IMG/VR virus record: IMGVR_UViG_3300028800_000097
Span: 733 to 64,732 of that record
Source: a virus
Taxonomy: Duplodnaviria > Caudoviricetes
Direction: 5' to 3' (one strand)
Length of the DNA: 64,000 nucleotides
Below are positions 8,022-48,302 of this stretch, one piece after another; the stretch's first letter is position 1, and each line of letters opens with the position of its first letter. The notes under the pieces are model-generated. The model made no database searches. It saw only the letters and a program-made list of their open reading frames with translations, and had not been told where the DNA came from. The position numbers and the translations under genes are program-made.

Positions 8022-8031
8022 GGAGATCGTG

Positions 8032-11377: not shown

Positions 11378-11403
11378 CCCCTCTCAGCACAGGAGTAACG
11401 ACT

Positions 11404-11897: not shown

Positions 11898-11898
11898 A

Positions 11899-25291: not shown

Positions 25292-26326
25292 ATGCCGCTA
25301 CCGAACACATTCGCAGCGCAAACCTCACCGCAGATGGTCGAATTGGACCAGAATTTTGCGGCGCTCGGTGCGTTGACAACAATACCTTGCACAGTGGCCG
25401 GCACGAACACGCTCGCGCTCACGGCGACCGCGAATACGCCGACCATTGCGGCATATTCCAACTACCAGCCATTCAGTTTCATCGCCGCTAATACGAACTC
25501 GACGGCTGCCACGGCTGCTGTTGGTAGTCTGGCGGCGCTCAGCATCTACAAGGACTCACTCGGCGGCCCTGTGGTGCTTACGGGCGGCGAGATCGTAGCG
25601 GGCGGGCTCGTGATCCTGACTTATGATTCAGCCCTCAATACTGGAGCGGGAGGCTTCCATTTAAGCCCTCCGACGTTATCCCCGACACTCGCCGCGCCGG
25701 TGTTGCTGACATCCTCCAGCGCCAACTATACCGTGCCCGCAGGCGTGACTTTGTTGCGTATTGCCATGACAGGTGCGGGCGGCGGCGGCGGCGGCGTATC
25801 GGCGGCGGCGGCAACGGCTAGCGCTGGCCTGCCAGGAGTGATGATTACGGGGGCGATGATCGTTACGCCTGGACAGGTGATCCCGTATGGATGCGGTGCG
25901 GGGGGAACTCGTGGGCCGAATACGGGGACGAGTGGGGGGGTCGGTGGCGATACAACCTTCGGGCCGTTCACGGCAAAGGGAGGGGGGCCGGGTGGCGGTT
26001 CGACCTCGGGTAATGCCGCAGCACAGGGACAGGCAGGGTCCACGACCATAGGACAGCAGCTTGCGATGATAACCGGGTCGGTTCTCGTGCCAACAACTGC
26101 GGCGTTCCTCACTTCTCAAAGCGGGACCAATATCAACGGCGCGGCGGGTGCTGCGGGTGTTGGCGGCCTTGGGCGGGGTATTTGGGGCACTGGGGGCACG
26201 CCTGGGACCAATGGTTCCGCGACAGATGCCACGGGCTATGGTGCGGGGGCATCGGGCGCAGGATCTACCGCCAGCACGGCCGGCACCGGCGGCCTCGGCG
26301 CCCCTGGCGCGATCCTTCTCTACTGA
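25292..26326 (+). CDS. glycine-rich tail fibre protein
   Basis: N-terminal ELDQNFAAL anchor; YTVPAGVT...GAGGGGG glycine-rich domain. Confidence 0.75.
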   Translation: MPLPNTFAAQTSPQMVELDQNFAALGALTTIPCTVAGTNTLALTATANTPTIAAYSNYQPFSFIAANTNSTAATAAVGSLAALSIYKDSLGGPVVLTGGEIVAGGLVILTYDSALNTGAGGFHLSPPTLSPTLAAPVLLTSSSANYTVPAGVTLLRIAMTGAGGGGGGVSAAAATASAGLPGVMITGAMIVTPGQVIPYGCGAGGTRGPNTGTSGGVGGDTTFGPFTAKGGGPGGGSTSGNAAAQGQAGSTTIGQQLAMITGSVLVPTTAAFLTSQSGTNINGAAGAAGVGGLGRGIWGTGGTPGTNGSATDATGYGAGASGAGSTASTAGTGGLGAPGAILLY

Positions 26327-33525: not shown

Positions 33526-33836
33526 TGAGTGGAACCAGGCAACGCGGCTTCAACGTGGTCGAGCAGGCCGAGGTGCCGCCGCCGCCACCAGCCGCAGACG
33601 TGCAGCCCCCGGCCGCCTTCATGTTCCAGGCGCGCGCGATCGCGATGGGCCTCCAGGTGCTTAGCCAGAAGGCGCTGGTCGGCCTGTCAGCGCTGTTCAC
33701 CGCGGCGCTGGTGGCCTCGGCGTGGCTGCTGTGGTGGAGCGTCCTGCCAAGCCCCACGACACCCCAACTGGTCGGTCTGGGTGGATATGCGGTGTTCGTG
33801 CTGCTAGTCGAGATCGTGCGTCGTAGGAGTGCCTGA
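33525..33836 (+). CDS. two-TM membrane protein
   Basis: two hydrophobic helices and a basic C-terminus. Confidence 0.65.
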   Translation: MSGTRQRGFNVVEQAEVPPPPPAADVQPPAAFMFQARAIAMGLQVLSQKALVGLSALFTAALVASAWLLWWSVLPSPTTPQLVGLGGYAVFVLLVEIVRRRSA

Positions 33837-35884
33837 TGCCATTCGACTCCAGGGATGCCGTTTATATCCCCGCGGAGGATTTGACTCCGGGGATGAAGAT
33901 CGCGCTGTACTCAAGTGTTTATCCGGATGCAGGTTGGTCCCTGGATACGACGCTGGGCGATATATTAGACTTCCTGTCGCCCCCCACGCTGGATCTAAAT
34001 GTTCAGACTGTATATACTGGCGGGCGCGTTGATCTCACTAAATGTGCGATAGATGTGACGCAAACCGCCACCGGCAGTTCGGCGGGGCTGGACTGGATTC
34101 CGCTCAACAGCTTTACGATCAGCAGTGATACGCTGGACGTTAATCCGCCAGTTAACACCATTTACTCTTTCAACGCGCAAATTGATGTCGCGGTGCTGAC
34201 CATCAACTCGGCAATCGTAGGCGCCCCGAAATTTACTGTTACCGCTTCGATATCCGGCACTGTCCTGACCCTATCGGCTCCGGTCACCGGAGGCACTGTT
34301 ACCGCCGGGTTGACTGTCTTTTGGAACGCGGGCGCCAACAGCGGCACCATCCAAAGCGGCGGTGGTAGTGGTGGGACCACCTATAATCTCGACGCCAATT
34401 ATGGAACCGTCACCTCTCAGTCCATGACGATGATCGGTCCGGCGCCTGGGAATCTGTTGTCATGGGACAGCGGCGATCCAGACAATCCGAACATTGCAAC
34501 TATTGCTGGATATACATTAACGCCTAATCATTGGAACCTGACGGCGACTGCCGGCCCTGTTCCCAATATGCCCATGCAGATCGTCAAGAATGGCGGTCCT
34601 CAGCAGCAGGCCATCGGCTGGAATTTCAATCATTTTTATGGCGGCGGAAATGCGTCGGGGAACCGCACATCTATCCGCCTTCAGGTAACCCAGGCCGGGG
34701 CGATGCCGGCGGGGACCAACGGCACCCAAGGCATGATTATTGGCAATTCAGCCCGGTTCCCATTTGGCGGGACCGATCTGTGGGCTGGCGCCTGGGGCGG
34801 CGCGTTGGGGTTCGGGACTTATATGAACATGGTAAAGCCGGTCTTCACCCCGGTTGGCAGCCCAGGGGCGGTTAATTGGCGCGGCTTGGCTGCCTGCGAG
34901 TTTGATTACACCTGTGCGTCGGGCGCTCCGGATGATCCGGCCTATCCGCGGGCGAGCGTAGGCGCGTTTGGCGGGATCACCGTCAATCGCCTTGGCAACA
35001 CCCAATGGAACACGCCAGTTTGGGAGGCCGATTTCGGCATCGCCGTGGGCCAGGGCGCCTCCTACGTCCGGGACGGCAGCGGGAACATTGTTCCTCCCAA
35101 GCTGGCGAGATTTGGCTATCGCTTTAGTGCTCCCCCAGGGGTTTGGCCTATTGATATGCTGGTCGGCCGCGGCATGGGGGCGGCTTTCGGCCTTCAGGTT
35201 TTCAACAACGACGGAACGCCTGGTCTCTATCCGAACAAAGGGCGGCATGGCATTGACTGGTATAACGTCGATTGGACTGGAACGCAGTTTAGGGGGCAGG
35301 GCTTCTCTATCGTTGGAAGCGGCGGTCCGTTCTCGATCCCCGGTGCTGTCCAGGTAGGTGGCGGCTATCTTTCTGCCAGTGCTACCACGATATCGCTCGA
35401 TACGGCTGGCAGCATGTGCTCTGCGGCGGCTGTGTCGAATGGGGGAGCAGTCCTGTTCCCTGGCCTCCCGTTGATCCATGACGACACGGGTACCATCTGC
35501 ATAGTCACTGCGGTTGATAATGCAGTGCGGCCAGGGTTTGGTGCTGCGACCGCGGTGTTTTTAATCGCGAACACTGGTCGCGCGGTTCAAAGCCAGATCC
35601 CGTCAAATCCAGTGACCTTCCGCGCGGCGACTGTGTGGTCTCAGCGCTACCCGGCGCCGGGGCCAACCAATCCGACGCTGACGCTGACGTGGACGCAGCC
35701 GACTATCCTTGCGTTACAGCCTGGTGGCGGCACTGTTCAGGTGGGGTCTGGCTGCATTGCTGCCAACGCTAGTGTGGCGACAGTGTTGGGGAGTGTCGGG
35801 CCTGTTGGTTCACATACGACGGTCCAGGAATGGATCGCGATCAAGAACGCCAGCGGGACGACCCGCTATATCCCAGCCTTTTGA
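33836..35884 (+). CDS. tail fibre/spike protein (no signal peptide)
   Basis: 682 aa, Gly/Thr-rich; C-terminal WIAIKNASGTTRYIPAF fibre-type end. Confidence 0.75.
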   Translation: MPFDSRDAVYIPAEDLTPGMKIALYSSVYPDAGWSLDTTLGDILDFLSPPTLDLNVQTVYTGGRVDLTKCAIDVTQTATGSSAGLDWIPLNSFTISSDTLDVNPPVNTIYSFNAQIDVAVLTINSAIVGAPKFTVTASISGTVLTLSAPVTGGTVTAGLTVFWNAGANSGTIQSGGGSGGTTYNLDANYGTVTSQSMTMIGPAPGNLLSWDSGDPDNPNIATIAGYTLTPNHWNLTATAGPVPNMPMQIVKNGGPQQQAIGWNFNHFYGGGNASGNRTSIRLQVTQAGAMPAGTNGTQGMIIGNSARFPFGGTDLWAGAWGGALGFGTYMNMVKPVFTPVGSPGAVNWRGLAACEFDYTCASGAPDDPAYPRASVGAFGGITVNRLGNTQWNTPVWEADFGIAVGQGASYVRDGSGNIVPPKLARFGYRFSAPPGVWPIDMLVGRGMGAAFGLQVFNNDGTPGLYPNKGRHGIDWYNVDWTGTQFRGQGFSIVGSGGPFSIPGAVQVGGGYLSASATTISLDTAGSMCSAAAVSNGGAVLFPGLPLIHDDTGTICIVTAVDNAVRPGFGAATAVFLIANTGRAVQSQIPSNPVTFRAATVWSQRYPAPGPTNPTLTLTWTQPTILALQPGGGTVQVGSGCIAANASVATVLGSVGPVGSHTTVQEWIAIKNASGTTRYIPAF

Positions 35885-35894
35885 GGAGCTAATT

Positions 35895-36107
35895 GTGGAC
35901 CAAAACTTCGCCCCGCCTCCCCAGCAACGGCAGAAGGTCGACCCTGATCTTCCCCTCTCAGTGATCATTCCGGCGAAGGAGTGGGCAGTCATCTGTGGCG
36001 ACATCCACGATGGCATCGAACGCCGGGCTAACTTGTTGAAAAACATCAACGAGCAGCTTGTCGCCCAAACAACCCAGCACGAGCCGGGATCAGGGGAGTT
36101 GCGCTAA
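35895..36107 (+). CDS. small helical protein, putative fibre chaperone
   Basis: GAGGAG SD, GTG start, directly after the fibre gene. Confidence 0.6.
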   Translation: MDQNFAPPPQQRQKVDPDLPLSVIIPAKEWAVICGDIHDGIERRANLLKNINEQLVAQTTQHEPGSGELR

Positions 36108-37964
36108 ATGCGAACGCTTGCGGTCCTGCTGTGCCTGTCTCTGGCGGCGCCTGCCGCGGCCCAGGTGCGCCAATCAGGATCGGTGTCCCCTGGCCACTCA
36201 ACGTTCTGGGTGACATCTGGCATCGTCGGGGACGCGGGCACGTCTACCTCGCCAAACGGCCTGACAACGCTCGGTCTTACAGCGCCAGGCACCACCCCAT
36301 TCTGCATCAACAACGGACCAACGACGGGGGCGTATTCCGCCCTGTGCCTCGGCATAAACCCCTCTGATGGCCACGCTACCATGACGGTAAACGCGTTCGG
36401 CGGCGCTACTCCACTCGGGTTGGATTTCAGCATGAACGGCAATCTCTCGTCGTTCAGCATCGGGGCGAACGGAGTTCCTAACATTGGTGCGGTCTCACTC
36501 AACCCGCTGATCGTTGGCACGCCGCCCAACAACATCCTGACGGTCGCGCCAGGGGCCACTAGCACCGCCCCGATAGCGTTCTCCCAGAGCGGAACGGGAG
36601 GCATGAGTTTCCCCGCACTAGATATCGGCAATGCCGGCTCGGTTGTCTGGACCGATGCCTCCTCTCCACGCGACGTGGATATCCATCAGCAGTGGACCGG
36701 AACGTCAACGCTATCCGGGTCCCTGATGTTGAACAGCGTCCTGACGCGGGATGCAATTTCTTATCCGACAACAAACCAGTACATATCTACCTTTGATGTC
36801 ACGCAGCAGTTCGGCGGCACTTCCTCAACAGGGACGCATATCGCGTTGAATGTGCTTAGCCAGCAAACAGCAGCGACAGGCAACTTTGCGGCGGGCGGAG
36901 AATTCAACGCTGTCGGTGCTTTTCTGGGGTCCGTTGTTTCCTTTAATGAAGGGGGAACCAGCTTTAACAATGGCGGTCACAGTGGGACTTTGTTTGGATT
37001 CAACCCGGCGGTCACGATGAACAGTGGGGCAACGTTCTTCAGCGAGGCTTCTGCAAGCGAATTTAACCTAAACATTAAGTCTGGCGCATCAGTATTCGTG
37101 AAATACGGCGTTGGTATAGTCAAGGAAGCTACTGACGCGGTACAAGGCGCTTCTGGCCTGGACGCGGCGGTCAGCATGAGCGACCAGATCGGGGCGGTGC
37201 CCTGGTTCTATGGCGTGCAGTTCGGAAATGAGGGAGGCCAGTGGCCATTCGACACGAGTGCCGTGTTGATCGGATCGCGTCTTAACTCGCAGTTTGCCGC
37301 CGTTATTGGAGCCGCGAAATGGGACATTGATTTCCTATCCAACACGACCAGCAAGGGGTTAATCCAAGGCCCGAATTTCCATGTCAACTCTACGGGTATC
37401 ACCCGCGTTGGGTTCGGCGCTTTGAAACCTGACTCGGCCGGCATGGTGATAACCGCGGACGGTCTACAAGCCGCCACTGCAACGATCGCGGCGGCAGGAA
37501 CAGGCTACGGGGTCGGCTACGTTTACGATGTAAACGGCAACATCTGGCACATTGACAGCGTGAATGGCAGCGGCGGTATTACCGGCGTGACCATCTTCCA
37601 GGCTGTTCAGACAGCAACAGCGACCACACCAATTGCGATGGCGCCGATACCTTACAATTTAGGTGCAACCGGCGGATCTCTGACGGTGGCATATGCCTCG
37701 GGGACCACGATCAAAATACAACCCACGTCTGCCGGCGAGACGGTCGTGGGAGGAACGCAACTGCCAGCACTCAACGCCACAACCGGGTTCTTCCACTTTC
37801 CATTCACCAACGCGACCTCTGGCTCGGGCGGTATCCCGACCGGAACGCCGGCGAATATCTTCGGAAATGCCTGCGTATGGAATGACGTTACGTTCGTTCT
37901 GAACTGTTACAGTGCCAGCGCGGGGGCGTGGAAGCACGTTTCGTTCAGCGCCAGCGCCGGCTGA
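36108..37964 (+). CDS. signal-peptide-bearing fibre/spike protein (paralog of 33836-35884)
   Basis: MRTLAVLLCLSLAAPAAA|Q; colinear motifs shared with the 33836 ORF. Confidence 0.75.
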   Translation: MRTLAVLLCLSLAAPAAAQVRQSGSVSPGHSTFWVTSGIVGDAGTSTSPNGLTTLGLTAPGTTPFCINNGPTTGAYSALCLGINPSDGHATMTVNAFGGATPLGLDFSMNGNLSSFSIGANGVPNIGAVSLNPLIVGTPPNNILTVAPGATSTAPIAFSQSGTGGMSFPALDIGNAGSVVWTDASSPRDVDIHQQWTGTSTLSGSLMLNSVLTRDAISYPTTNQYISTFDVTQQFGGTSSTGTHIALNVLSQQTAATGNFAAGGEFNAVGAFLGSVVSFNEGGTSFNNGGHSGTLFGFNPAVTMNSGATFFSEASASEFNLNIKSGASVFVKYGVGIVKEATDAVQGASGLDAAVSMSDQIGAVPWFYGVQFGNEGGQWPFDTSAVLIGSRLNSQFAAVIGAAKWDIDFLSNTTSKGLIQGPNFHVNSTGITRVGFGALKPDSAGMVITADGLQAATATIAAAGTGYGVGYVYDVNGNIWHIDSVNGSGGITGVTIFQAVQTATATTPIAMAPIPYNLGATGGSLTVAYASGTTIKIQPTSAGETVVGGTQLPALNATTGFFHFPFTNATSGSGGIPTGTPANIFGNACVWNDVTFVLNCYSASAGAWKHVSFSASAG

Positions 37965-38191
37965 TGAAACTTAGGAGCCTGAACTTGCGATACCTCATCC
38001 TGACAGCGCTGCTGTTTCCGACCGTTGCCACGGCGCAAACGGCTCCGAACGCGCAAGCTAGTCTCGCCGCCTCCCTGGCCAGCAATCTGTCAATGGCCGT
38101 CGCTGAAAACGAACAACTCAAAGCGGAGGTTGCGGAACTGAAGAAGAGGCTGGCTGAGGCGCCGCCGCAACCGCCTGTGAAAAAGGACTAA
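37964..38191 (+). CDS. signal-peptide-bearing small coiled-coil protein
   Basis: MKLRSLNLRYLILTALLFPTVATA|Q...ENEQLKAEVAELKKRL. Confidence 0.7.
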   Translation: MKLRSLNLRYLILTALLFPTVATAQTAPNAQASLAASLASNLSMAVAENEQLKAEVAELKKRLAEAPPQPPVKKD

Positions 38192-38195
38192 CCCC

Positions 38196-39116
38196 ATGAA
38201 ACGCCACGCGCGCCTGCTATTCACGATCGCCGCACTCCTCGCTGGTACGAATGGCGCGCGGGCGGCGGATGCCAATATGTACCAGTTGAGCGGCACATCC
38301 TCGACTGGCGCCCCGCTATGGCAACCTGTCGGGCCGAGCAACCCGCTTTCTGTCAACGCAACTGTCAGTGTCAGTGCCAGTATCGCTGGGTTCACGCCGG
38401 CTGGAACGTACGCGTCCCTGACGGCAACGGGCTCGTCATCCGCCAGCACAGCGTTGCCGGCCGGAACGGTTGTGGCGTTCTACAACACTGGATCATCAGC
38501 GGTCAGTTGTGTTTTGGCATCCGGAACTGCAACCGCGACCGGCAGCAAGGAGGTCATTCAGCCTGGTGGATCGGCATACTTAACCGTCGGCGCCAATAAC
38601 AATGCCGCCTGCATCGATCAGGCAGGGTCAGCCTCGAACCTCGTGGTGTTATCGGGAGGGGCGGGTCTGGGGGCCAATACCGCCGGTCTACCTCCGCCTG
38701 GTAGTGCCGTATCAGCGGTGTCAGTGCCGGTTGTGATCGCCTCAGACCAGGGGGCGGTGGCGACAAAGCCTGGCAGTTCTGCATCATCGGCCGATGCGTT
38801 GGCCGCGGTCATATCTAGCGCCGCGGAGAGCGGCCATGTGCTCAAGGCGAGCGCAGGCAACCTTTACGACGCCTATGTGACCGCTGGCGCTACGGCCGGG
38901 TTCCTAATGGTCTTCAATGCTACCTCCGCGCCCGCTGATGGTGCTGTTACTCCGCAGGACTGCCTTCAGGTGCCGGCGAACACGACGCAATCGTTGTTCA
39001 CTGCTGGCACACCGCCTGAATCGTTTTCCACCGGCATCACGGCGGTGTTCAGCACCACGGGCTGCTTCACCAAGACGGCAAGTGCCACAGCCTTTTTCCA
39101 CGGGAGGGTGAAGTGA
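38196..39116 (+). CDS. signal-peptide-bearing structural protein with two jelly-roll-like domains
   Basis: [23 protein letters not shown]|A; [10 protein letters not shown]...[11 protein letters not shown]...FSTGIT resembles phage spike-base/decoration domains. Confidence 0.65.
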
Positions 39117-40483
39117 TGCGCTCGCTTCGTCTGGCCTTATCTCTGTGCCTGCTGTCGGGGGCAGCGCTGGCACAGGGCGCATTCAGCACGCAAGGTGCCG
39201 GCGGTGGTGGCGGCGGGTCTGTATCGGTCACCGCTGGCACCTCGAATGTCGTTGTAACGCCTTCCCCTGGTACTGGCACATTCACGATCGGCACTCAGGT
39301 TCCGACAAGCGCGCAATCGGGTTCTTACGCAGTCGTCGGGGCTGACAACACGAAAGTCATCATCGGCGCAGTCGCGACCACCATCGCGCAAGCAGGAACG
39401 GGGCTTTTCGTGGCCGGGTGGGGCGCCAGCATCGTTGGTGATTCTGGCGGCGCGACCGTCCTTACCCCGACCACCTCGACCATCGGTGGCCTCGCATCGC
39501 TTGCCCTCGCGGCCAATCAGTTCGCCAGCTTTGCGGTGGATGGCTCGAACTATGACGTGGCGCTCGGCATGCCTCCGTCGGGCACGCAGAACTTGGTGAT
39601 CGCCACCCCCAACGGATCGACCGGCCAGCCGAAGCTGCGGGCGCTGGTAGGTGCGGATATCCCAGCCGCCAACCTTGCATCGAGCAGCAATGGTGGCGTC
39701 ACGGGCAACCTTCCCGTTACCAACCTCAACAGCGGCACCAGCGCTTCGTCCTCTACATTCTGGCGCGGGGACGGATCGTGGGCAACGCCGTCTGGCGGCG
39801 GCAACGTCAGCAACGTGGGCACTCCGACAAACGGTCAGCTTGGGCAGTGGACCGGAGCCACAACCATCCAGGGCATCACGACGGGCACTGGCGTTGCTAC
39901 CGCGTTGGGGGTGAATGTCGGCTCGGCCGGAGCATTCGTCACATTCAACGGAGCGCTTGGGACGCCCTCGTCGGGCACGCTCACAAGCGCGACCGGCCTG
40001 CCGATCTCCACGGGTGTCTCGGGATTAGGAACGGGTGTCGCAACCGCACTTGCCGTCAACACCGGTTCGGCCGGAGCGCCGGTCCTGTTCAACGGCGCAG
40101 GCGGAACGCCCTCGTCCATGACGGGCACGAACATCACCGGCATTCCGAACGCCGCGGTTGCTGCGGCGCCGCTGCCAACGCCGGGGACTAGCGCCACGCT
40201 TGTTGCGCCGAGATCCTACTACGTCTGCACTAGCACATGCTCCGTCACGCTGCCCACGCCAGCCGCAGGGTATGAGTTTTGTGTGCGGAACGACAACAAC
40301 GTCTCCACCGTCATAACCTTTGTCGCCATCTCATCGGTGCAGTTCGAGAACACCAACTTCACCAGCTACAAGACCGCGAACACGTCCATCGTCTCGGGCG
40401 GCGCGGCTGGCGATAAGCTGTGCGTGATGGGGCGCGACTCGACGCACTACCTCGTTATGTCCTTCAACGGGACGTGGAGTTAG
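39113..40483 (+). CDS. signal-peptide-bearing fibre protein with internal repeats
   Basis: [20 protein letters not shown]|Q; [12 protein letters not shown]; two [30 protein letters not shown] repeats. Confidence 0.75.
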
Positions 40484-40490
40484 CGGGGGC

Positions 40491-41615
40491 ATGCGTCTGG
40501 GCCTGCACTGGTTCTTGCTGTGGACGGTGCTGTTCGGTGCATCTGCCGACGCACAGATGATGCAGGCGATTGTCAATTCTCCCAATGGTTATAGAGGCCC
40601 CGGCGACATCGTTTCAGGCGCTACCGCATGGTACGGTCTACGAGCCTATAGCGCCGCCTACGCCGCTAGCCTGGGCAAAGCCATCAATCTGCGCCGTGCG
40701 TCCGACAGCGTGGCCTGTGATGTCCTGGTTGCGTCTACTGGCCGGTTGGGACTCACAAGCGCAACTTGTAACTCCTCGACGCAGGGAGGCATTACGCCTG
40801 CGGCATTCGCTGGAACCGACGCGACCGCGACGTGTTCTGCCACTGCCAGCACAACGCTCGCCTGCACTGGAGCGTCGTCCACGCCACACGCACTCGATCC
40901 GATCTCGGGGACTGGGATTACGCAACCGGCCTATATCGTCTCGTGCGGGACGTTCACCGGCGGTGCTGGCTCCTGCACGATGAACCTGGCGCAGACCGTG
41001 GCGTCCGTGACCGTGACGTTTCAGGTCGCGCTGTTTGTCGCCAAGGCTTACGATCAGAGTGGCGGAACGAATGATGCCGTACAGGCGACAACAGCAAATC
41101 AACCTCTATTTCTGTCCACATGCGTTGGCACATCAACGAATCTGCCGTGCCTGGTGTTTTACAATCTTCTCCAGGTCTTGCAGGCAACGATAACGAGTAC
41201 GGCGTTTACGACGCTCACGTATTCATTTGTTGCGATACGAACGGGACAGTTCACTACCTTTGGCGGCATTGCGAATCTTGGTACGCAGACCGTGGTGGGT
41301 GGCTTTGGTAATGCCGCAAACACTGCGGTAATCTATGCTGGGACCGTGGTGACTTCGGCTGCTGCCGACAATGCTTGGCACGCAGTACAGGAGGCGTTTA
41401 ACGGCGCTAGTTCCGTCATAAACGTGGACGGATCAAGCTCGACCGTAAACCCCGGAACTGTGTCGACCGGGCTAACGTCTTTGCAGTGGGGCGACACAAC
41501 CACAGCGCCGACTGGCGCCTCCACCGAAATGGGCATGTGGGGCGCCGTTGTTTTCAACTCTACACAGATCAGCAATATGCACACGAACCAATCAGCGTAC
41601 TGGGGGACTCCATGA
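40491..41615 (+). CDS. signal-peptide-bearing ConA/LamG-like (arabinofuranosidase B catalytic-like) protein
   Basis: ...GASADA|QMMQAIVN; AWYGLRAYSAAY...INLRRASD; YDQSG.TNDAVQATTANQP. Confidence 0.65.
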   Translation: MRLGLHWFLLWTVLFGASADAQMMQAIVNSPNGYRGPGDIVSGATAWYGLRAYSAAYAASLGKAINLRRASDSVACDVLVASTGRLGLTSATCNSSTQGGITPAAFAGTDATATCSATASTTLACTGASSTPHALDPISGTGITQPAYIVSCGTFTGGAGSCTMNLAQTVASVTVTFQVALFVAKAYDQSGGTNDAVQATTANQPLFLSTCVGTSTNLPCLVFYNLLQVLQATITSTAFTTLTYSFVAIRTGQFTTFGGIANLGTQTVVGGFGNAANTAVIYAGTVVTSAAADNAWHAVQEAFNGASSVINVDGSSSTVNPGTVSTGLTSLQWGDTTTAPTGASTEMGMWGAVVFNSTQISNMHTNQSAYWGTP

Positions 41616-42640
41616 TGAAGGGGCTTTGCTTTTCGGCGCTCTTTTCTCTGACGCTTTGCGGAATGGCATGTTCGCAGGTTGTGGGTTCCAACCAAGGTAT
41701 AATGTGGGGCATCAATGGGCATCCCGTGCAAGGCGGTCCCTACACAACGATCAGCTACGCAACACAGATGGCGGGGGTAAGCGCTGCTGGGATGAAAACC
41801 TACCGCATGGACCTATACGACGCTTCCCCCACGTCGCTGGCTGTCCTAACCAGCGTCCTGGCAGCCGCGACCACGGCAGGGATTATCGTGGTCCCCGATC
41901 TGATCCCCAACGTGCTGGCGGCTGGCACTGAGACAAACGCCTACACCCAGGGATATGCGATCGGACAGACCTATGCTGCTGCCTATCCAACCATCAGGGT
42001 CTGGGAACTGGGCAATGAATGGGAACTAGCCGTGGGGGCCGCTAACCCAGCATCTAACCCGGATGGCCACCTTATCTCCCAGTACGACCAAACCAAATAT
42101 GCGCTGGCACGGGGGGCGTTGAGAGGCATGGCGGCAGGCATCAAGGCCGCGAACCATAGCGCCCTGGTGGCAATCGGAACCGCCGGGGTGTGCCATTACG
42201 GATTTACCGACGGTCTGTGGGCCGATGGAGTACGGTGGGATATCACCGTTGAGCATTGGTATTCCCTGGCGGGTGACATCACCAATATGGCCGGATTCTG
42301 CACCGCCGGCCCGATCAACAAAGCCGCCGTGCTCCATAGCCACTACGGTAAGCCCATCTGGATCACCGAGTTCAACGATAACGCCAATCCCGCGAACAAG
42401 ACCGAGATGGCGGACAAGCTGGTATCAATGATGACACAGTGGAATGGCATTGCTACGACCTATGACATCGAGAGCGGCGTGATCTATGAACTTTACGATC
42501 AACCTGCGGCGCCTGTCGGTATCGAGCAGCACTTTGGCGTCGTATCCGCCAGTGGTACCATCAACGCTGCGGGAACTGCCGTAGTGGGCTACCTGTCGAC
42601 GCACCCGAGCAAAGTGTATACCTCACGGCAAGCGAACTGA
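41612..42640 (+). CDS. signal-peptide-bearing clan GH-A glycoside hydrolase
   Basis: WGINGH, YRMD, WELGNE (acid/base), HWY, KPIWITEFN (nucleophile), IYELYD. Confidence 0.85.
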   Translation: MMKGLCFSALFSLTLCGMACSQVVGSNQGIMWGINGHPVQGGPYTTISYATQMAGVSAAGMKTYRMDLYDASPTSLAVLTSVLAAATTAGIIVVPDLIPNVLAAGTETNAYTQGYAIGQTYAAAYPTIRVWELGNEWELAVGAANPASNPDGHLISQYDQTKYALARGALRGMAAGIKAANHSALVAIGTAGVCHYGFTDGLWADGVRWDITVEHWYSLAGDITNMAGFCTAGPINKAAVLHSHYGKPIWITEFNDNANPANKTEMADKLVSMMTQWNGIATTYDIESGVIYELYDQPAAPVGIEQHFGVVSASGTINAAGTAVVGYLSTHPSKVYTSRQAN

Positions 42641-43377
42641 TGGACCGCTTAATCCTCCCGCGCCGGAAGTTCCTACTCGCGGCTCCCGCGCTGGTCCTGC
42701 CTCATCGCCGTGCCGACGCTCAGATGATGCAGGCTATCGTCAACGGCAAAATCCCGGCAAGCGGGCCGCCCCCCGGCTGGAACCTGATCGCCAGCGTCCA
42801 CAAGGACGGCAACGGTGTAGCGTCCTCCGCCATCAACACTACGTTCGCCAACCTGCTGGTCTGCAACGCTGCCGACTTCAATAACGGCGGGGTCTCGGCG
42901 CCCACTGACTCGTACGGGAACACTTGGGTCGGGCTGACCTCTTATGTGAATTTCCTCGTCGTCAACATCTATTACGTCGTGTCGCCTACCGTTGGAGCCG
43001 GTCACACCTTTACCCCGGTCAATGCAGGCAACGGCGGCATCACTGTCCATGCCTTCTCCGGGGCCAATGCGACGACGCCATACGAGGGGCATCAGAACGG
43101 GACCACGACCGATGGAACCGGCACCGTGCAGCCAGGGTCCGTCACGCCGGGCCAGAACAACACGCTCATTTACTCGGGCTATATGTCGAACGCCGGCTCT
43201 GTAGGGGCCACGATCAATTCAGGTTTCGCGTCTCCACCCCCCCAGTCGTCGGTCGGAACAACCTGGACCTCATCGGGATCGTATTTCGTTCAGGCGACGG
43301 CTGCGGCCATCAATCCAACATGGTCTTCGGCCGGCACGGCGAACATGCGGGCCAACATCGCGGTGTTCAAGACGTGA
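42640..43377 (+). CDS. Tat-type signal protein, beta-rich structural domain
   Basis: MDRLILPRRKFLLAAPALV...ADA|QMMQAIVN. Confidence 0.7.
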   Translation: MDRLILPRRKFLLAAPALVLPHRRADAQMMQAIVNGKIPASGPPPGWNLIASVHKDGNGVASSAINTTFANLLVCNAADFNNGGVSAPTDSYGNTWVGLTSYVNFLVVNIYYVVSPTVGAGHTFTPVNAGNGGITVHAFSGANATTPYEGHQNGTTTDGTGTVQPGSVTPGQNNTLIYSGYMSNAGSVGATINSGFASPPPQSSVGTTWTSSGSYFVQATAAAINPTWSSAGTANMRANIAVFKT

Positions 43378-45899
43378 TCTGGCGCATCCTCCTCGCCCTC
43401 TTTCTGCTCTGCGTGGCCAGGCCAGCCCTGGCTCAGACCACGTTCGGGTCCGACTGCAACAGCAATCTGACCATCAGCGGCGCGGGTCTCATCCTGACCG
43501 CGGATGCGAGCTCGACCTACCGCGTGTGCCGCGCCGACAATCCGAAGTTCAGCGGTAAGTGGTACTTCACCTACACCCCTAGCGTGCTCAACGCCGGGGT
43601 ATTCATCGGCGTGGCGAGCGGGGCGACCCTCGTCCCGTATGGGGGCCTCGATCCCGCCACGTGCACGGGGTTCCAATTCAACACGCAAGGCTGCGGGAGC
43701 TACCAGACAACCGCCTCGGTCATCACCTCGGGCGGTGGCGGCATCTTCATGGTCGGGAACAACATCATCACCGGGACCGGCTCCTCAACGGTTGGGGTTC
43801 GGTCCGTTGTCGCTGTGGATCTTGACACCGACCCTCCGCAGTATTGGTTCACCCCAGATGCTAGCGGCACGAGCGGCTACAGCGGCGGCCCATTGTGGAA
43901 CGGGTCGTCGTCGTCCTCGCCAGAGGTGCCTGGGACCGGACTGCCGACATCCGGGGGCACAGGCGCGCAGTTCATCCTCAAAGGACAGCTTCAAAACCCG
44001 GTTGCGGTGCTGGCGAACAGCGATGCCGTGACGTTCAGCTTTGCGGCATACGCCCCGATCACTACCCTCCTGCCTGATTACTCGCCGTGGAATACCAGCG
44101 GCGGTGGGCCGCCATCGCCCGGACCGCTGACGCCTATGAACTCCCAGATCAGCAACGCGCCAGGCTGGACATCCGGCACGCGCGCCGTGGGCTATAGGGT
44201 GAACGCCGGACCGGGGTGGAACGGGACCAGCTACACGAGCGGCAGCAAGCTATGCCTGTTCGCTGTGACAGTCGGGGGCACCACGGGGAGTGATCCCACG
44301 GTGTTCAACACGGCCTGTAACTCGGGCACACCCGCTGGGGTGGGCGGCATTCCGACGGGCTCCTGGGGCGGCGCTACGACTGTCACGGACGGCAGCGTGA
44401 CTTGGGCGCTCCTGACGGTGGTCGATGAAGTCACCGCCACAGCGGCGCCTGCCGACACCAACACGCCGTGGGCGACCAGCACGCAATACCTGAATGGTGC
44501 CTACGTCCTGAACGGCGGGGTGGCCTACGTGCAAACCTCCCAGGCGTTGGACAAATGCACGTCGGCATCCTCGGGCAGCGGACCGACCGGTATCTCGTTC
44601 AATGGTGGCATCACCGATAACACATGCAGTTGGGCGTCACGCGCGACCATCGTCTACAGCTCGCACAACGCCATGCCGGGCCATCAGTTCACCTACAATG
44701 CCGGGGGCATCAATCCCGAGATTTCGATCTTCTACGACATCAACTTCAACCTGTGGTGGGGCGGCACGGGGGCGCCGAAGTATCAGGCCGGCCATGGCAA
44801 CGAGAATGACCCGGTGACCGAGTTTGATATTACGGACCTATACGGCGAGGGGAACATGAACTGCTGGCACGGCCTCGCCAACAACATCCTGCCAAACCCC
44901 ACGGCAGCGGTGCAGGGCCAGAGTTGTAACGGCCAGCCTTGGCTCATCCGCTATCGGCCAGCGCCCGGCGACGGTTTTGCCGATAACGCCCCGACAGGGC
45001 CTCTTGGGTACGGCGACTCGTCCAAGGGCGTCATGGTGTACTCGAATACCGCGGTCGGGGTTGGCATCAACCCGACAGGATCAGCCATGCTGATAGACAG
45101 CTTCGGGCTGGTCTTTCAGGGGTTGCAGGTCTTCTCCGTGAACGGGGCTGCGCTTGGTGGCAATATCAACGGCATCACGTCGGGGTGGACGGGGCACGTT
45201 GATAATATCTCCCTCGTCGGCAACATCTTATATGCCGGCGGTCAGAACGGCCCTGTATCCGGTGATGGTGGCACGCTCGCGATCAACAACGTGTTCGTCT
45301 ACGCGGGCAGTGATCCGATCTGCTACGGGCTCTTCAGCAAGTTTGAGTCCACCGCCGCATTCAACACCTTCATAGGGCCGGGACTGGCAACCCCACAGTG
45401 TGCGGCCATCCTCGATCTTGCGGGGGCGTTCTACAACAGCGTCGCGATCCAGAAATACGACAATGCCATCTTCGGGTTCGGGATACCGTATGTCTATTCG
45501 GACAATACCTACAGCCACGGCGCTGTGGGGGCGAGCAACGTCACCGATGTGGCCGCCTCTTACACGGGCAGTTCCTTCACCTACAACGCTGTCAGCTACA
45601 CGGGCACCCAGATGGTGGGCACCTCCGTAAACAGCGCCTCTGGTGCCGCCACGTTCGTTAATCCAACGGTTGGCGCCTCTCTCGATCTGCGGGTCAAGAA
45701 TGCGTCCTCGCCGCTGTATGGCGCGGGCGTGACCTTCTCCAACAACGGCTCGACGCCGATCATTTCGCTTGCGCCGTGGCCGCCGACGGTGGACATTTAC
45801 AACAATCTGCGCCCGACTGGCTCGCGGTTCGATGTTGGTTCCGAGCAATTCCAGCCGGGCGTTGTGCCCACTGTACTCAGGTTAAGGCTCAAACTTTGA
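43374..45899 (+). CDS. large signal-peptide-bearing adhesin/tailspike-like protein (SPRY-like, CBM-like, beta-helix-like)
   Basis: MIWRILLALFLLCVARPALA|Q; SGKWYF..., VAVDLD, WATSTQY..G, C-terminal FVNP...DLR...RP..RFDVGSEQ. Confidence 0.75.
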   Translation: MIWRILLALFLLCVARPALAQTTFGSDCNSNLTISGAGLILTADASSTYRVCRADNPKFSGKWYFTYTPSVLNAGVFIGVASGATLVPYGGLDPATCTGFQFNTQGCGSYQTTASVITSGGGGIFMVGNNIITGTGSSTVGVRSVVAVDLDTDPPQYWFTPDASGTSGYSGGPLWNGSSSSSPEVPGTGLPTSGGTGAQFILKGQLQNPVAVLANSDAVTFSFAAYAPITTLLPDYSPWNTSGGGPPSPGPLTPMNSQISNAPGWTSGTRAVGYRVNAGPGWNGTSYTSGSKLCLFAVTVGGTTGSDPTVFNTACNSGTPAGVGGIPTGSWGGATTVTDGSVTWALLTVVDEVTATAAPADTNTPWATSTQYLNGAYVLNGGVAYVQTSQALDKCTSASSGSGPTGISFNGGITDNTCSWASRATIVYSSHNAMPGHQFTYNAGGINPEISIFYDINFNLWWGGTGAPKYQAGHGNENDPVTEFDITDLYGEGNMNCWHGLANNILPNPTAAVQGQSCNGQPWLIRYRPAPGDGFADNAPTGPLGYGDSSKGVMVYSNTAVGVGINPTGSAMLIDSFGLVFQGLQVFSVNGAALGGNINGITSGWTGHVDNISLVGNILYAGGQNGPVSGDGGTLAINNVFVYAGSDPICYGLFSKFESTAAFNTFIGPGLATPQCAAILDLAGAFYNSVAIQKYDNAIFGFGIPYVYSDNTYSHGAVGASNVTDVAASYTGSSFTYNAVSYTGTQMVGTSVNSASGAATFVNPTVGASLDLRVKNASSPLYGAGVTFSNNGSTPIISLAPWPPTVDIYNNLRPTGSRFDVGSEQFQPGVVPTVLRLRLKL

Positions 45900-46074
45900 A
45901 AGCGGGGCGACATACTCAAGGTGTGACTTGCGCCACAGACAGCGGTCTGGACATGGTGCATGAATGATGCACGAAAAGCCCAAACTTGGCTTCGTGCCGT
46001 TACCTCGCGCTCTGGGCAGGTTCGTGAATTTCCCGTCAACAAAGCGTCGCGATCGCGGGGGGCGGCGTAAGGAA

Positions 46075-46401
46075 ATGATATTTTCGTCAGCGGCCTACAA
46101 GGCTCTGGAGGAGCGGATAGCCCGGCACGAAGATTGGTGCGAACGTCGAGAGGCCCTATGGGACACCCGGAGGGAAGAGGAAAGGCGTTACTCTGACGCC
46201 GCCCGGGATAAGCTAGGAGCCAAGATAGAGGGCTCCTCTGAGGCGCTCAGAGCGCTGGTCGAAGGCAATACCAAATCGCAGAACAAGCTGTTCCTGAGTA
46301 TCTCAGGGACCATTATCCTCTTGCTCCTGACCGGCGGCGGCACTTTGGTGTATGCCGTCGTTACGATGCTTTCCCACGGGGGGAAATTGGGGGGCGGGTG
46401 A
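46075..46401 (+). CDS. coiled-coil protein with C-terminal TM
   Basis: LEERIARHEDWCERR...ISGTIILLLLTGGGTLVY; start uncertain (alternative 45964). Confidence 0.6.
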   Translation: MIFSSAAYKALEERIARHEDWCERREALWDTRREEERRYSDAARDKLGAKIEGSSEALRALVEGNTKSQNKLFLSISGTIILLLLTGGGTLVYAVVTMLSHGGKLGGG

Positions 46402-46715
46402 TGCAGGACATAGTGGTGGTGGCGATCATCGGGGCTGTGCCGGGCACGCTGGCGGCAATCGTCGGTGTCGCCAGCATGGTAGTTTCCCTCCGAAATAGCC
46501 AGAGCATCTCTGTGGTGGCGAAAAATACGGACGGAATAAACGCTGCGTTCAACGAGCTGACCAGCAAAGAGGCGCACGCGCGTGGGATGCTGGATCAGTC
46601 CGCGGCGACTAATGCGGCAGGCATTCCGCCCGTCACTCCGCCAGCCGCCGATAACGTCACGGTTATAGGAGAGAACGTGACCGTAACTAAAAAGCCCATA
46701 AGGAGCGAATCATGA
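46398..46715 (+). CDS. N-terminal TM protein (holin-like candidate)
   Basis: IVVVAIIGAVPGTLAAIVGVASMVVSL. Confidence 0.6.
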   Translation: MMQDIVVVAIIGAVPGTLAAIVGVASMVVSLRNSQSISVVAKNTDGINAAFNELTSKEAHARGMLDQSAATNAAGIPPVTPPAADNVTVIGENVTVTKKPIRSES

Positions 46716-46834
46716 TGCTCATCAATGCTTGGTGGCTCTTACCCACCGCGATCGTCGGCTTCGCCGCCGGCTGGTGGTGGCGCATCCATCGCGGACCTCC
46801 GCGTGACGACAAGGGGAAATTCACAGGCGCATGA
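46712..46834 (+). CDS. 40-aa membrane peptide
   Basis: AAGGAG SD; MMLINAWWLLPTAIVGFAAGWWWRIHRGPPRDDKGKFTGA. Confidence 0.55.
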   Translation: MMLINAWWLLPTAIVGFAAGWWWRIHRGPPRDDKGKFTGA

Positions 46835-46935
46835 CCCACAACACTACCATCCTGCTGGTAGCGCTCGGTTCCAACGTCCTGACGTTCGCGGCCGGATTCG
46901 TGCTAGGGTGTCGCAGGGCGCGCGCTGGTTGGTGA
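46831..46935 (+). CDS. 34-aa membrane peptide
   Basis: ATGA coupling; MTHNTTILLVALGSNVLTFAAGFVLGCRRARAGW. Confidence 0.45.
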   Translation: MTHNTTILLVALGSNVLTFAAGFVLGCRRARAGW

Positions 46936-46951
46936 GGGAAAGGAACGAGTC

Positions 46952-47128
46952 ATGGGTCTGATAGTGCTTATTTTGGTCATCCTCTTTCTGTGCGGAGGCG
47001 GCGGTTATTACGGTTACAACCGCTTCGGCGCTGGCGGCGGCGGGATCAGCGTCGTCGGGATTCTCGTTGTCGTGCTGATCGTGTGGTTCCTGTTCGGCGG
47101 CGGCCTCGGCGGCGGCTGGAGGGGTTGA
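46952..47128 (+). CDS. DUF3309-like small Gly-rich membrane protein
   Basis: MGLIVLILVILFLCGGGGYYGYNRFG...VVGILVVVLIVWFLFG; AAGGA SD. Confidence 0.7.
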   Translation: MGLIVLILVILFLCGGGGYYGYNRFGAGGGGISVVGILVVVLIVWFLFGGGLGGGWRG

Positions 47129-47577
47129 TGAGCACTATCGACCTATCGCCCATCCTCACGCCGATCATCCAGATCGTCGGCATCGTCGTTGGTCTGTTGG
47201 TAACGGCCTACGTGCCAATCGCGCTTGCTGCGTTCCAGAAGCGCACAGGCATCCAACTCACAGACCAGCAGCGCGCGACAGTGCTCGGCGCCGTGCAGAC
47301 CGCTGCGGGGACGCTCGAGACGAAGCTGGACCAGGGCGTCGTCAAGGTGGCGCAGATCAACGTCGGCGACAGTGCGGTGGCCGAGCAGGCGCAGAAGGCG
47401 ATCAATGCCGTGCCCGATGCCATGAAGGCGCTCGGCATGACGCAGGACAGCGTGGCGCGGATAATCGTCGGCAAGGTGGACACTGCGGCGCACGGCGATC
47501 CGCCGGTGGTGCCGCTGACCAAAGCAACCCCCGTCGCCGGTGCGCTGCTGCCGCTGCCGCGTTCGATGACGCCATGA
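47128..47577 (+). CDS. holin-like protein (single N-terminal TM)
   Basis: IDLSPILTPIIQIVGIVV...KRTGIQLTDQQRATV. Confidence 0.6.
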   Translation: MSTIDLSPILTPIIQIVGIVVGLLVTAYVPIALAAFQKRTGIQLTDQQRATVLGAVQTAAGTLETKLDQGVVKVAQINVGDSAVAEQAQKAINAVPDAMKALGMTQDSVARIIVGKVDTAAHGDPPVVPLTKATPVAGALLPLPRSMTP

Positions 47578-47728
47578 CCCCAGCCGAGCGCTCCGCCGTC
47601 CGTCTCGTGATCGAGGCGATGCGCATGGTGCTCAAGGCGTCCTACCGAGAGGACGAGCGCGGCAAGACAGCGAACCGTGCGATGAAGAAACTGGACGACG
47701 CTGACGATCTGCTCAAACAAGGAGGGAA

Positions 47729-48010
47729 GTGATGCCGCGCTACCCCTGTCCGATTTGTGGAGACCCCAACGCCTTCCCGTTGTGGATCGACAGCGAGCCT
47801 CCTGCGACATGCGCGAACGATCCAGCTTGGCCGCGTCGGTCGCTTCACAGTATTTGCTCCGTCCAGATACAGCGCGCCAAGCAGGCGGCAGAACTGCGGC
47901 GCATTACGCCCGATGCCTTCGACGACAACGGCACGATGATACCGGGCCAGTCCGGGCGCGCATGGCACAACTGGATCAACGCCAATCCCGACAAGCCAGT
48001 TCTGATATGA
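47729..48010 (+). CDS. Cys-containing hypothetical protein
   Basis: GGAGG SD; CPICG. Confidence 0.55.
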   Translation: MMPRYPCPICGDPNAFPLWIDSEPPATCANDPAWPRRSLHSICSVQIQRAKQAAELRRITPDAFDDNGTMIPGQSGRAWHNWINANPDKPVLI

Positions 48011-48029
48011 ACCACACAGGAGACCAACC

Positions 48030-48302
48030 ATGAACCGCACCATCGCCATCGCCGCCACCCTCGCAGCCCTCGCCGGTTGCACGCCGCAGACTGCCACCGA
48101 CGCCGTCGCGTGCGCCGCTGCGGTTCAGGTCGCGATCTCTACGCCGCCTGGCATGACTGATGCACAAAAGGGCGTAGCTGCCGGCCTCGCTGCTGCCAGC
48201 ACTCCGGCTTGTGTTGGCCTGTCCGCCGATGCGGTGGCCGCGATGGGGCAACTCAAGACGGCGACCCCGAGTGTCGCAGCGGTCAAAGCCCCGAAGTCGT
48301 GA
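48030..48302 (+). CDS. lipoprotein (possible o-spanin)
   Basis: MNRTIAIAATLAALAG|C lipobox; AGGAG SD. Confidence 0.7.
   Translation: MNRTIAIAATLAALAGCTPQTATDAVACAAAVQVAISTPPGMTDAQKGVAAGLAAASTPACVGLSADAVAAMGQLKTATPSVAAVKAPKS

Follow-up and report, generated by a model that had tools for sequence, protein, structure and literature searches.

The virus record IMGVR_UViG_3300028800_000097 (64,732 bp; Duplodnaviria, Caudoviricetes) has a CheckV completeness of 100% and represents a complete, uncultured, soil-type phage of ~65 kb. We analyzed positions 733-64732 of this record, a stretch of 64,000 nucleotides hereafter called the window, in which eight consecutive genes (36108-45899; window coordinates are used throughout) each begin with an apparent export leader of the general secretion (Sec) or twin-arginine translocation (Tat) type. 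These genes, named g1 to g8, are listed below, with ↓ marking the predicted cleavage site.

36108-37964, plus strand: g1, 618 amino acids; Sec-type leader MRTLAVLLCLSLAAPAAA↓Q, fibre-like body by homology
37964-38191, plus strand: g2, 75 amino acids; leader ending TVATA↓Q, coiled-coil-like helix, Pro-rich tail, no Cys
38196-39116, plus strand: g3, 306 amino acids; leader ending GARA↓A, 4 Cys
39113-40483, plus strand: g4, 456 amino acids; GTG start with an ATG at 39116, leader ending GAALA↓Q
40491-41615, plus strand: g5, 374 amino acids; leader ending ASADA↓Q, mature start QMMQAIVN, 8 Cys in local pairs
41612-42640, plus strand: g6, 342 amino acids; leader MMKGLCFSALFSLTLCGMACS↓Q, immediately followed by a glycoside hydrolase domain of clan GH-A type; 2 mature Cys
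42640-43377, plus strand: g7, 245 amino acids; Tat-like leader MDRLILPRRKFLLAAPALVLPHRRADA↓Q, mature start QMMQAIVN, 1 Cys, two-sandwich beta body
43374-45899, plus strand: g8, 841 amino acids; GTG start, leader ending CVARPALA↓Q, 12 Cys

The start of g1 lies one base past the stop of the preceding open reading frame (ORF; 35895-36107), and neighbouring genes within the block either overlap by 1-4 nt or are separated by gaps of 4-7 nt, in line with the tight packing within the late operon that a first-pass annotation of this DNA had described. Together the eight genes span 9.8 of 64.7 kb, or ~15% of the genome, with a GC content similar to that of the remaining genome.

Export leaders, glutamine and cysteine in the eight genes

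Inspected by eye, all eight ORFs start with a basic n-region, an uncharged hydrophobic core and a small-x-small site, and the predicted cleavage sites from g1 to g8 are AAA↓Q, ATA↓Q, ARA↓A, ALA↓Q, ADA↓Q, ACS↓Q, ADA↓Q and ALA↓Q. Seven of these leaders have a Sec-type layout, with an h-region of ~8-18 residues and small residues at -3/-1 within the first ~40 residues. The leader of g7 is Tat-like, with PRRKFLL followed by a mild h-region (LAAPALVLP), a basic c-region (HRR) and ADA↓Q. The leaders were also scored by a heuristic of our own (cut-off 4.5). Seven of the eight block ORFs passed (six of the seven Sec-type ORFs and g7), compared with one of the 62 other phage ORFs (Fisher p = 5e-8). The sole block ORF under the cut-off was g6 (3.49), and the sole ORF that passed outside the block was a lipoprotein-like one at 48030-48302. 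The claim of the first-pass annotation that every ORF of the block carries a leader was therefore confirmed by layout in eight of eight cases and by the heuristic in seven.

Provided that the predicted sites are used, the +1 residue is Gln in seven of the eight proteins. The mature chains of g1 to g8 contain 4, 0, 4, 4, 8, 2, 1 and 12 Cys, respectively, mostly in local pairs, with the single Cys in the Tat-type g7. Both the Gln and the Cys counts are exactly those given in the first-pass annotation. For comparison, 14 other structural or packaging proteins of the phage have 0-6 Cys, and the number is even in 8 of them. The Cys pattern of the block fits oxidative folding, and the eight proteins very probably fold outside the cytoplasm. 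From these sequence features, we infer export and oxidative folding of the block proteins, and we regard this conclusion as well supported.

Gln at +1 is also frequent among relatives of the block proteins, at 11 of 15 leader-bearing g8 homologues and 30 of 55 leader-bearing g4-type proteins. This frequency recalls the 'Q rule', which is called Bacteroidetes-specific in PMC10367356; the cellular relatives found here are only alphaproteobacterial.

Leaders of g1, g7 and g8 are conserved in close relatives

For g8, a leader was present in 15 of 16 homologues, the sixteenth being a fragment. The leader sequence differs among them, and the architecture and the '..A.A↓QTTF' junction persist. Three short homologues that lack the first domain of g8 are still leader-bearing, and leaders are also found on the g8-type genes of six further loci (L005, L006, L007, L009, L010 and L011). 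The g1 alignment covered 8 of 15 homologues (P0002-P0008 and P0011; P0009, P0010 and P0012-P0016 were left out). All three close homologues (P0002, P0003 and P0008) keep a leader ending in AFAQ or AFGQ, whereas the distant homologues P0004, P0005, P0006 and P0011 have a leaderless 'PNLGL'-type N-terminus, absent from g1, and have only the central domain (~residues 200-530) in common with g1; P0007 is N-terminally incomplete. The g7 family comprises 218 homologues, and among the 120 that were listed, 24 have a leader by the heuristic and 14 have an RR motif. The close relatives P0185 (73% identity), P0197, P0221, P0233, P0257 and P0277 keep ..PRRKLL..HRRA.A↓Q, whereas most of the listed homologues, about 94 of 119, begin directly with the domain and have no leader.

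Because close relatives of g1 and g7 keep the leaders and distant ones lack them, the leaders are best read as lineage-specific additions that were maintained thereafter. The survey of relatives proposed in the first-pass annotation thus turned up conserved leaders in g8 (15 of 16), in the close homologues of g1 (three of three) and in those of g7. Homologues that start downstream of the leader, which that annotation had named as evidence against its claim, were found only among the distant relatives of g7 and g1.

In g5 and g7, a Met-Met directly follows the predicted cleavage site. The upstream starts have Shine-Dalgarno-like motifs or stop-start overlaps, and no such feature precedes the internal Met-Met of either gene; for example, a GGAG motif lies upstream of the g5 start at 40491 and none lies before its Met-Met.

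The g4 repeat family is large (10,225 representative proteins at E <= 1e-3) and contains both leader-bearing and leaderless members. The top 149 representatives were divided into 55 leader-bearing and 82 leaderless proteins after 12 intermediates were dropped. Cys content was 1.14% in the leader-bearing proteins versus 0.50% in the leaderless ones (Mann-Whitney U test, p = 1.6e-8). Among proteins with any Cys, the number was even in 46 of 52 leader-bearing members versus 35 of 77 leaderless members (Fisher p = 3.9e-7). As judged from these sequences, the split in Cys content and parity is a signature of adaptation to an oxidizing compartment. In the g7 family, leader-bearing and leaderless members were alike in Cys content (p = 0.23) and parity (p = 0.076), as expected if the proteins of this Tat family are folded before export.

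Domains of the eight proteins

The layout of g8 consists of a SPRY/B30.2 domain (~20-240), a right-handed parallel beta-helix (~250-820) and a basic hydrophobic C-terminal tail. An AlphaFold2 (AF2) model built from 16 sequences had a predicted local distance difference test score (pLDDT) of 69.8, with values of 30-50 in part of the SPRY domain. The SPRY domain matched Ash2L (6e2h_D; VIA Z 18.7, root-mean-square deviation 3.7, 178 aligned) and also DDX1 (4xw3_B); by Foldseek it was found at E 1.8e-8, with phage SPRY proteins in BFVD at E 3e-9. The beta-helix matched the Bacteroides glycoside hydrolase BT_1002 (Z 17.4), lyases and pectin esterases. The helix resembled both phage tailspikes (Pam1, Z 15.6; Fri1, 13.7; CBA120, 13.2) and exported bacterial depolymerases (VexL, Z 14.5; WceF, Z 12.7).

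A short basic/aromatic tail ends g8 (45860-45899) and the homologues P0018-P0033, as in VLRLRLKL, LRLRWFGR, GGRRLWH, RVGFWRH and KVGRVW, and it remains at the extreme C-terminus even where extra Ig-like domains precede it. This tail could be a sorting, tethering or partner-binding tag.

The 4 Cys of the mature g1 chain form two local pairs. The direct similarity of g1 to the leaderless fibre-like protein encoded at 33836-35884 is weak, and because the pairwise E value is only 0.045, we do not call the two proteins paralogues. g2 gave a weak match to the Rz-like spanin family phrog_13 (E 0.0056) and leucine-zipper-type Pfam matches under the cut-offs. No lipobox ORF lies beside it, the lipoprotein-like ORF at 48030-48302 being ~10 kb away. 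Judging from its sequence, g2 may be spanin-like or a small protein that partners g1 in the periplasm. g3 had no Pfam, PHROG or NCBIfam match. Its mature Cys lie at 82/116 and 233/267, and the identical spacing of 34 in both pairs suggests an internal duplication that produced two repeated disulfide-bearing domains. The nearest ESM Atlas clusters of g3 are 87-96% viral hypothetical proteins (score 0.90-0.93), which we take as a lead only.

After its leader, g4 has a Gly run, tail-fibre-type repeats and a C-terminal domain with 4 Cys. A tblastn search with g4 found eight records among cultured phages, the best being a leaderless 551-amino-acid protein of Bradyrhizobium phage ppBjS10J-1. The LamG/ConA-like body of g5 rests on ESM Atlas neighbours that are 100% viral clusters, with PF09206 or Laminin_G_3 at TM 0.62-0.65, and is likewise a lead. 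For g6, the match to PF11790 (Glyco_hydro_cc) was marginal (E 6.8e-5; 23.0 bits versus a cut-off of 21) and covered residues 208-277 only. The single match to a cultured phage was Orf70 of Pseudomonas phage POR1 (tblastn, 25% identity, E 2e-7), a leaderless protein of 873 amino acids in which the g6-like domain is internal and whose gene adjoins a 'tail collar fibre' gene. The AF2 model of g7 had a pLDDT of 86. Its best fold matches were weak (VIA Z 5.6) and were TNF/C1q-like jelly rolls, including the receptor-binding protein (RBP) head of phage Tuc2009; we assigned no fold family to g7, since Foldseek returned nothing from the PDB at E <= 0.001 and no VIA Z exceeded 5.6. Neither g7 nor g8 had a tblastn match among cultured phages, and a sequence search of solved structures with g4, g6 and g8 gave nothing usable.

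The peptide ADAQMMQAIVN is common to g5 (40545-40577) and g7 (42712-42744), where the 33 nt differ at four sites, all of them synonymous. From this conservation, QMMQAIVN could be a docking peptide. Variants of the QMMQAIVN type also follow Tat-like leaders in the g7 homologues P0185, P0233 and P0251.

Taken together, the bodies of the block proteins are host-recognition and depolymerase modules of phages, which elsewhere occur without leaders and behind particle-binding N-termini. Among the domains named in the first-pass annotation, SPRY and the beta-helix in g8 and the fibre-like character of g1 and g4 were upheld. The glycoside hydrolase domain of g6 was marginal and the LamG assignment of g5 came from the ESM Atlas only; the label 'spike-base' was not verified. 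For g7, the match to a jelly roll was weak. None of the eight proteins matched a PHROG tail family, and no particle-binding N-terminal domain was recognized in them, with no PHROG or Pfam match to such a family. None matched a lysozyme, amidase, transglycosylase or peptidase family at E <= 0.1 in Pfam, PHROGs or NCBIfam.

The block occupies the tail-fibre slot of the late operon

The features around the block are as follows.

5′ of the block: major head protein, phrog_9953
5′ of the block: SU10-type adaptor with paralogues, PF24175 (E 2e-15)
25292-26326: leaderless fibre-like gene, with PHROG tail-fibre matches (phrog_863 and phrog_6202) and PF21722
27122-33304: three large ORFs in the position of internal virion proteins, no family match
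33836-35884, plus strand: leaderless 682-amino-acid fibre-like protein, C-terminus ..RYIPAF like that of the leaderless g1 homologues P0004-P0006
35895-36107, plus strand: leaderless 70-amino-acid helical ORF abutting g1
45964-48302, plus strand: small membrane proteins and a lipoprotein-like ORF, a lysis-like region by its sequence
45964-46401: Rz-like spanin match, phrog_2466 (E 0.0026)
48030-48302, plus strand: 90-amino-acid ORF with a lipoprotein-type leader MNRTIAIAATLAALAG↓C and the lipobox LAGC

In this T7-like gene order, internal virion proteins are followed by the block and then by small membrane proteins, which places the block in the tail-fibre slot of the late operon. The protein encoded at 33836-35884 is fibre-like by its C-terminal tail only. 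The region 45964-48302 is probably the lysis region, in which 48030-48302 could encode an exclusion lipoprotein or an outer-membrane spanin.

A Pfam scan of the 57 other ORFs (E <= 0.001) found DnaB, HNH and two Dam-type methyltransferases and no peptidoglycan hydrolase family; it found no integrase or resolvase family either, which is a weak test of their presence. Further Pfam matches outside the block were an Acb2/Tad1 hairpin (E 6.9e-6), RMF (E 1.1e-5) and PEP-CTERM (E 7.4e-4). There were 2 promoter-like sites versus 4.5 expected from shuffling and 15 terminator-like sites versus a shuffled expectation of 10.5 +/- 3.4, and none of either kind brackets the block; this test, too, is weak. 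Late lytic expression would fit the finding of neither an integrase in the ORFs scanned nor a promoter or terminator signal above chance that sets the block apart.

A megablast search with the block matched none of 50,697 phage records, and the capsid protein is only 34-35% identical to that of two uncultured phages. No tRNA genes were found in the window.

Similar blocks in unrelated phages and single genes in bacteria

Relatives of g8 were found in four IMG/VR records. None of these four has a match to the window's capsid protein, indicating that they are not close kin. Genes in the related loci were called by third-position GC content (GC3) and heuristic scripts. At locus L008 (genome G004; 58.5 kb, 97% complete), a run of six leader-bearing ORFs, one of them Tat-like, comes after an SLT-type internal protein and another large protein, and the run is followed by a membrane/coiled-coil ORF and a lipoprotein. 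At L007, five leader-bearing genes stand in a row, including an ORF of 1306 amino acids with TRRQLL. L005 has at least two leader-bearing genes, and behind its g8-type gene comes another ORF, the N-terminus of which looks NlpC/P60 peptidase-like when the sequence is read by eye. G004 was rebuilt in the search for a phage with leaders on all of its fibre candidates; at the contig end it has a partial, beta-helix-like ORF without a leader.

A further contig, L013 (JGI, 69.8 kb), has a different head module (phrog_264, protease and Neck1) and carries g4-like, g7-like (Tat) and g8-like genes ordered as in the window. Its leader-bearing g4-like gene has 84% identity to g4 over 246 residues. The start of this gene is overlapped by an ORF at 7675-8112 (plus strand) for a leaderless protein of 145 residues, with the fibre-motif-like N-terminus ..DADLFYTVQSGADAKAT.. 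(pairwise E 0.087). By its arrangement, the pair may represent a split anchor and an exported distal part. Leader-bearing g4-type representatives lie on contigs of 42-70 kb. In single-protein searches of IMG/VR, g8 gave one weak locus and g1 none, and a search with the g1 alignment gave two weak loci and nothing in genome contigs. We conclude that the gene class, not the sequence, is common to several uncultured phage lineages, in which blocks of export-signal genes precede the lysis genes.

Three metagenome-assembled genomes (MAGs) of Alphaproteobacteria also hold leader-bearing g8-type genes, indicating that the host is probably an alphaproteobacterium. In one MAG chromosome (L009), the gene lies beside metabolic genes and outside any phage context. 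It is split there into two overlapping frames of 613 and 472 residues (9713-12854, plus strand), reflecting either a frameshifted pseudogene or an assembly error. In another MAG (L010), the gene lies amid transposases and next to a Tat-type gene of 1298 amino acids.

Free exported proteins as the tentatively favoured explanation

Our preferred reading, to which we assign a probability of about 0.42, is that the block is a variable cassette that closes the late operon and would encode exported proteins made from host-recognition modules, which act free of the particle by binding and cutting glycans. Late in infection, seven of the proteins would be threaded through the host Sec translocon and g7 would be exported in a folded state via Tat. 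Signal peptidase I would then cut the leaders, mostly exposing a Gln that can cyclize to pyroglutamate, and the Cys pairs would be oxidized in the periplasm. The proteins would gather there during the cytoplasmic assembly of capsids and tails, and both would be released together at lysis. The free proteins would act on envelope glycans of the host (exopolysaccharide, capsule, lipopolysaccharide or periplasmic glucan). Binding would be the task of the fibre repeats, the SPRY domain and the LamG-like and jelly-roll bodies, and cutting that of g6 through its GH-A barrel and of g8 through its beta-helix. Within an infected cell, this activity might strip or stop a coat that serves as receptor or barrier, and after lysis it might clear the matrix for the progeny. 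The analysis directly shows the leaders with their conservation, the Cys signature, the g8 and g7 folds and the order of the genes; from these we infer the actual export, the processing, the disulfides, the glycan substrates and the free state of the eight proteins.

This reading is favoured because g6 and g8 look like anchorless enzymes, because no particle-binding domain was recognized in any of the eight and because separate leaderless fibre-like genes (25292-26326 and 33836-35884) are present in the genome. It is also favoured because g8-type genes exist in bacteria without phage genes; since leader-bearing copies lie in MAG chromosomes, the g8 family can work without a virion. With no particle-binding domain recognized, no match to a PHROG tail family, separate leaderless fibre-like genes and g8-type genes in bacteria, the first-pass description of the eight as virion appendages is not supported here, and the docking after export or surface adhesin complex that it proposed would be conjectural.

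Several points weigh against free proteins. Enzyme-like folds are seen in only two of the eight, and the block fills the fibre slot of short-tailed phages in translational coupling with a leaderless fibre-like gene upstream. The common ADA↓QMMQAIVN of g5 and g7, with synonymous changes only, is what would be expected of a peptide kept for a common docking partner, and nearly all ESM Atlas neighbours of g3 and g5 are viral. At L008, a leader stands ahead of a 33-residue motif that leaderless fibre-type proteins carry at their N-terminus (42% identity, pairwise E 0.014). The leader scores come from our own heuristic, not from a trained predictor. Finally, Sec and Tat export delivers proteins to the periplasm only, so that any action outside the cell depends on lysis.

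Alternative explanations

The first alternative is assembly in two compartments, in which some or all of the eight proteins are receptor-binding appendages that fold and acquire disulfides in the periplasm and join particles that are complete apart from them when the holin opens the inner membrane or at lysis. We consider it unlikely. The position of the genes in the tail-fibre slot and their coupling to structural genes would suit it, as would the fibre and RBP modules (the g1 core common to leaderless fibres, the g4 repeats and the g8 helix, which is Pam1-like at Z 15.6) and the purifying selection on the mature N-terminus QMMQAIVN of g5 and g7. Two related loci also agree with docking, both by weak similarities: the leader ahead of a fibre-type N-terminal motif at L008, and the leaderless 145-residue motif protein directly before the leader-bearing g4-type gene at L013. 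Blocks of 5-8 export-signal genes recur, moreover, at the same position in unrelated phages. However, no particle-binding domain was recognized in the eight, g6 is a bare enzyme, this phage also encodes leaderless fibre-like proteins (as G004 does a beta-helix-like one), and members of the g8 family are found in bacterial chromosomes where no phage genes accompany them. We found neither a mechanism nor a precedent for docking in the literature searched. Its fullest version is equally doubtful: in this phage and in many uncultured soil phages, part of the host-recognition apparatus would be produced in another compartment than the particle, and fibre, lectin and depolymerase subunits would be exported by Sec or Tat, disulfide-bonded, capped with pyroglutamate and captured at the holin breach with QMMQAIVN as the docking peptide, making lysis the last step of assembly.

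Alternatively, the exported proteins, especially g6 and g2, might replace or assist the endolysin and spanin from the periplasm in the manner of signal-peptide endolysins or PBSX XepA, which we judge distinctly improbable. Directly beside the block lie the small membrane proteins of what is probably the lysis region. Lysozyme, amidase and peptidase families turned up neither among the 57 ORFs scanned outside the block nor in the eight, and it is this missing endolysin that keeps the explanation alive. The Rz-like spanin match of g2 (E 0.0056) and the weak XepA/YomS-like resemblance of the g7 model (Z 4.5-4.6) point the same way, but both are under any safe threshold. No muralytic domain was recognized in the eight either, and PF11790, the family matched by g6, is not known to be a muramidase family. 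Exported endolysins as such are established, according to PMC6116005. At L005, however, the g8-type gene is accompanied by the separate NlpC/P60-like ORF (a sequence reading only), and eight proteins far exceed the needs of lysis.

The block could also be host-conversion (moron) cargo, i.e. exported adhesins or envelope proteins that benefit a lysogen or exclude other phages, as do Lom and Bor of lambda and Llp of T5. The distal end of a late operon, where these exported proteins are encoded, is the classic moron position; g8-type genes are found in bacterial chromosomes, and the cassette is common to different phage backbones. On the other hand, the genes are tightly coupled in translation to structural genes, their GC content is similar to that of the genome, no promoter or terminator signal above shuffled expectation sets the block apart, and the scan of the 57 other ORFs yielded neither an integrase nor a resolvase family. 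We therefore give this explanation very little weight.

That the leaders are an artefact of reading GC-rich DNA upstream of the true starts, leaving cytoplasmic proteins that in g5 and g7, for instance, would begin at the Met-Met, is extremely improbable: the position of these Met-Met pairs right after the predicted cleavage site and the leaderless state of most distant g7 homologues (about 94 of 119 among those listed) would fit, but leaders are kept in close homologues of g1, g7 and g8, all eight have the -3/-1 small-residue site, Shine-Dalgarno-like motifs or stop-start overlaps lie at the upstream starts and not at the internal Mets, and the Cys parity signature also counts against an artefact.

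Implications

Assembly of tailed phages is, in the textbook picture, wholly cytoplasmic, and signal peptides are commonly used to separate bacterial surface proteins from phage proteins. A complete phage genome that spends ~15% of its length on eight exported, Cys-paired proteins with receptor-binding and depolymerase modules is at odds with that picture, and so are the comparable blocks at the same place in unrelated uncultured phages. In addition, a fibre-repeat family of >10,000 members splits into leader-bearing proteins that are Cys-rich with even numbers of Cys and leaderless proteins that are Cys-poor. If the block proteins stay free, they would represent a widespread, overlooked route by which phages remodel or strip the host envelope from inside, and a source of disulfide-stabilized depolymerases and lectins. 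If they join the particle, the route of assembly would be new. For annotation, host-range and prophage-boundary tools that discard proteins with signal peptides would miss such proteins.

Comparison with known systems

Published accounts of signal peptides in phages concern other kinds of genes. Known virion fibres lack signal peptides. According to PMC6199706, the target proteins of phage diversity-generating retroelements lack them, and this absence was taken there to indicate a phage origin. Matrishin et al. (2023; PMC10367356) described capsid, spanin and unknown genes of Porphyromonas phages with signal peptidase I leaders that expose Gln under the 'Q rule', and PMC13507307 found signal peptides on 5% (3261/64,678) of prophage carbohydrate-active enzymes. 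In the available portions of these two reports, the genes are capsid, spanin, unknown or metabolic ones and are scattered, with no blocks of tail-fibre-type proteins. In a search that covered listings, abstracts and selected passages, we found no published account of tailed phages whose tail-fibre-type proteins bear signal peptides, and blocks of exported fibre-type proteins in tailed phages are in none of the reports compared here.

The late phage proteins listed as Sec users in the part of PMC6116005 that was consulted are exported and signal-anchor-release (SAR) endolysins only. Lys44 of fOg44, the SAR endolysins and the spanins (PMC6116005), and also PBSX XepA (6i56), resemble the block proteins in being late, Sec-using, waiting in the envelope and encoded beside lysis genes. 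Unlike these exported lysis proteins, the eight have no recognized muralytic domain, possess receptor-binding or depolymerase bodies and are eight in number.

Tailed-phage fibres are similar to the block in the g4 repeats, in the g1 core and in the position after internal virion proteins and before lysis, and the tailspikes and fibres of cyanophage Pam1 (7eea), Acinetobacter phage Fri1 (gp49, 6c72) and CBA120 (TSP1, 4oj5) are like g8 in their right-handed beta-helix. The block members differ from them in their cleavable-looking leaders, their paired Cys and the lack of a recognized particle-binding N-terminus. VexL (6fi2) and WceF of Pantoea (6tgf), periplasmic according to the entry titles, have a g8-like beta-helix depolymerase fold. 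No sequence similarity was detectable between g8 and solved structures, and g8 differs from them in that it lies in a phage late operon, is one of eight exported genes and has an extra SPRY domain.

The mosaic adhesive trimer (MAT) fibres of Bdellovibrio (Caulton et al. 2024, PMC10769870) are chromosomally encoded, leader-bearing, fibre-like adhesins. They resemble the block in having signal peptides, phage-fibre-like features, modular tips including TNF-like ones, disulfides and a use outside the cytoplasm. The block genes differ from the MAT genes in being viral, and the only common element seen in them is the eight-residue QMMQAIVN of g5 and g7.

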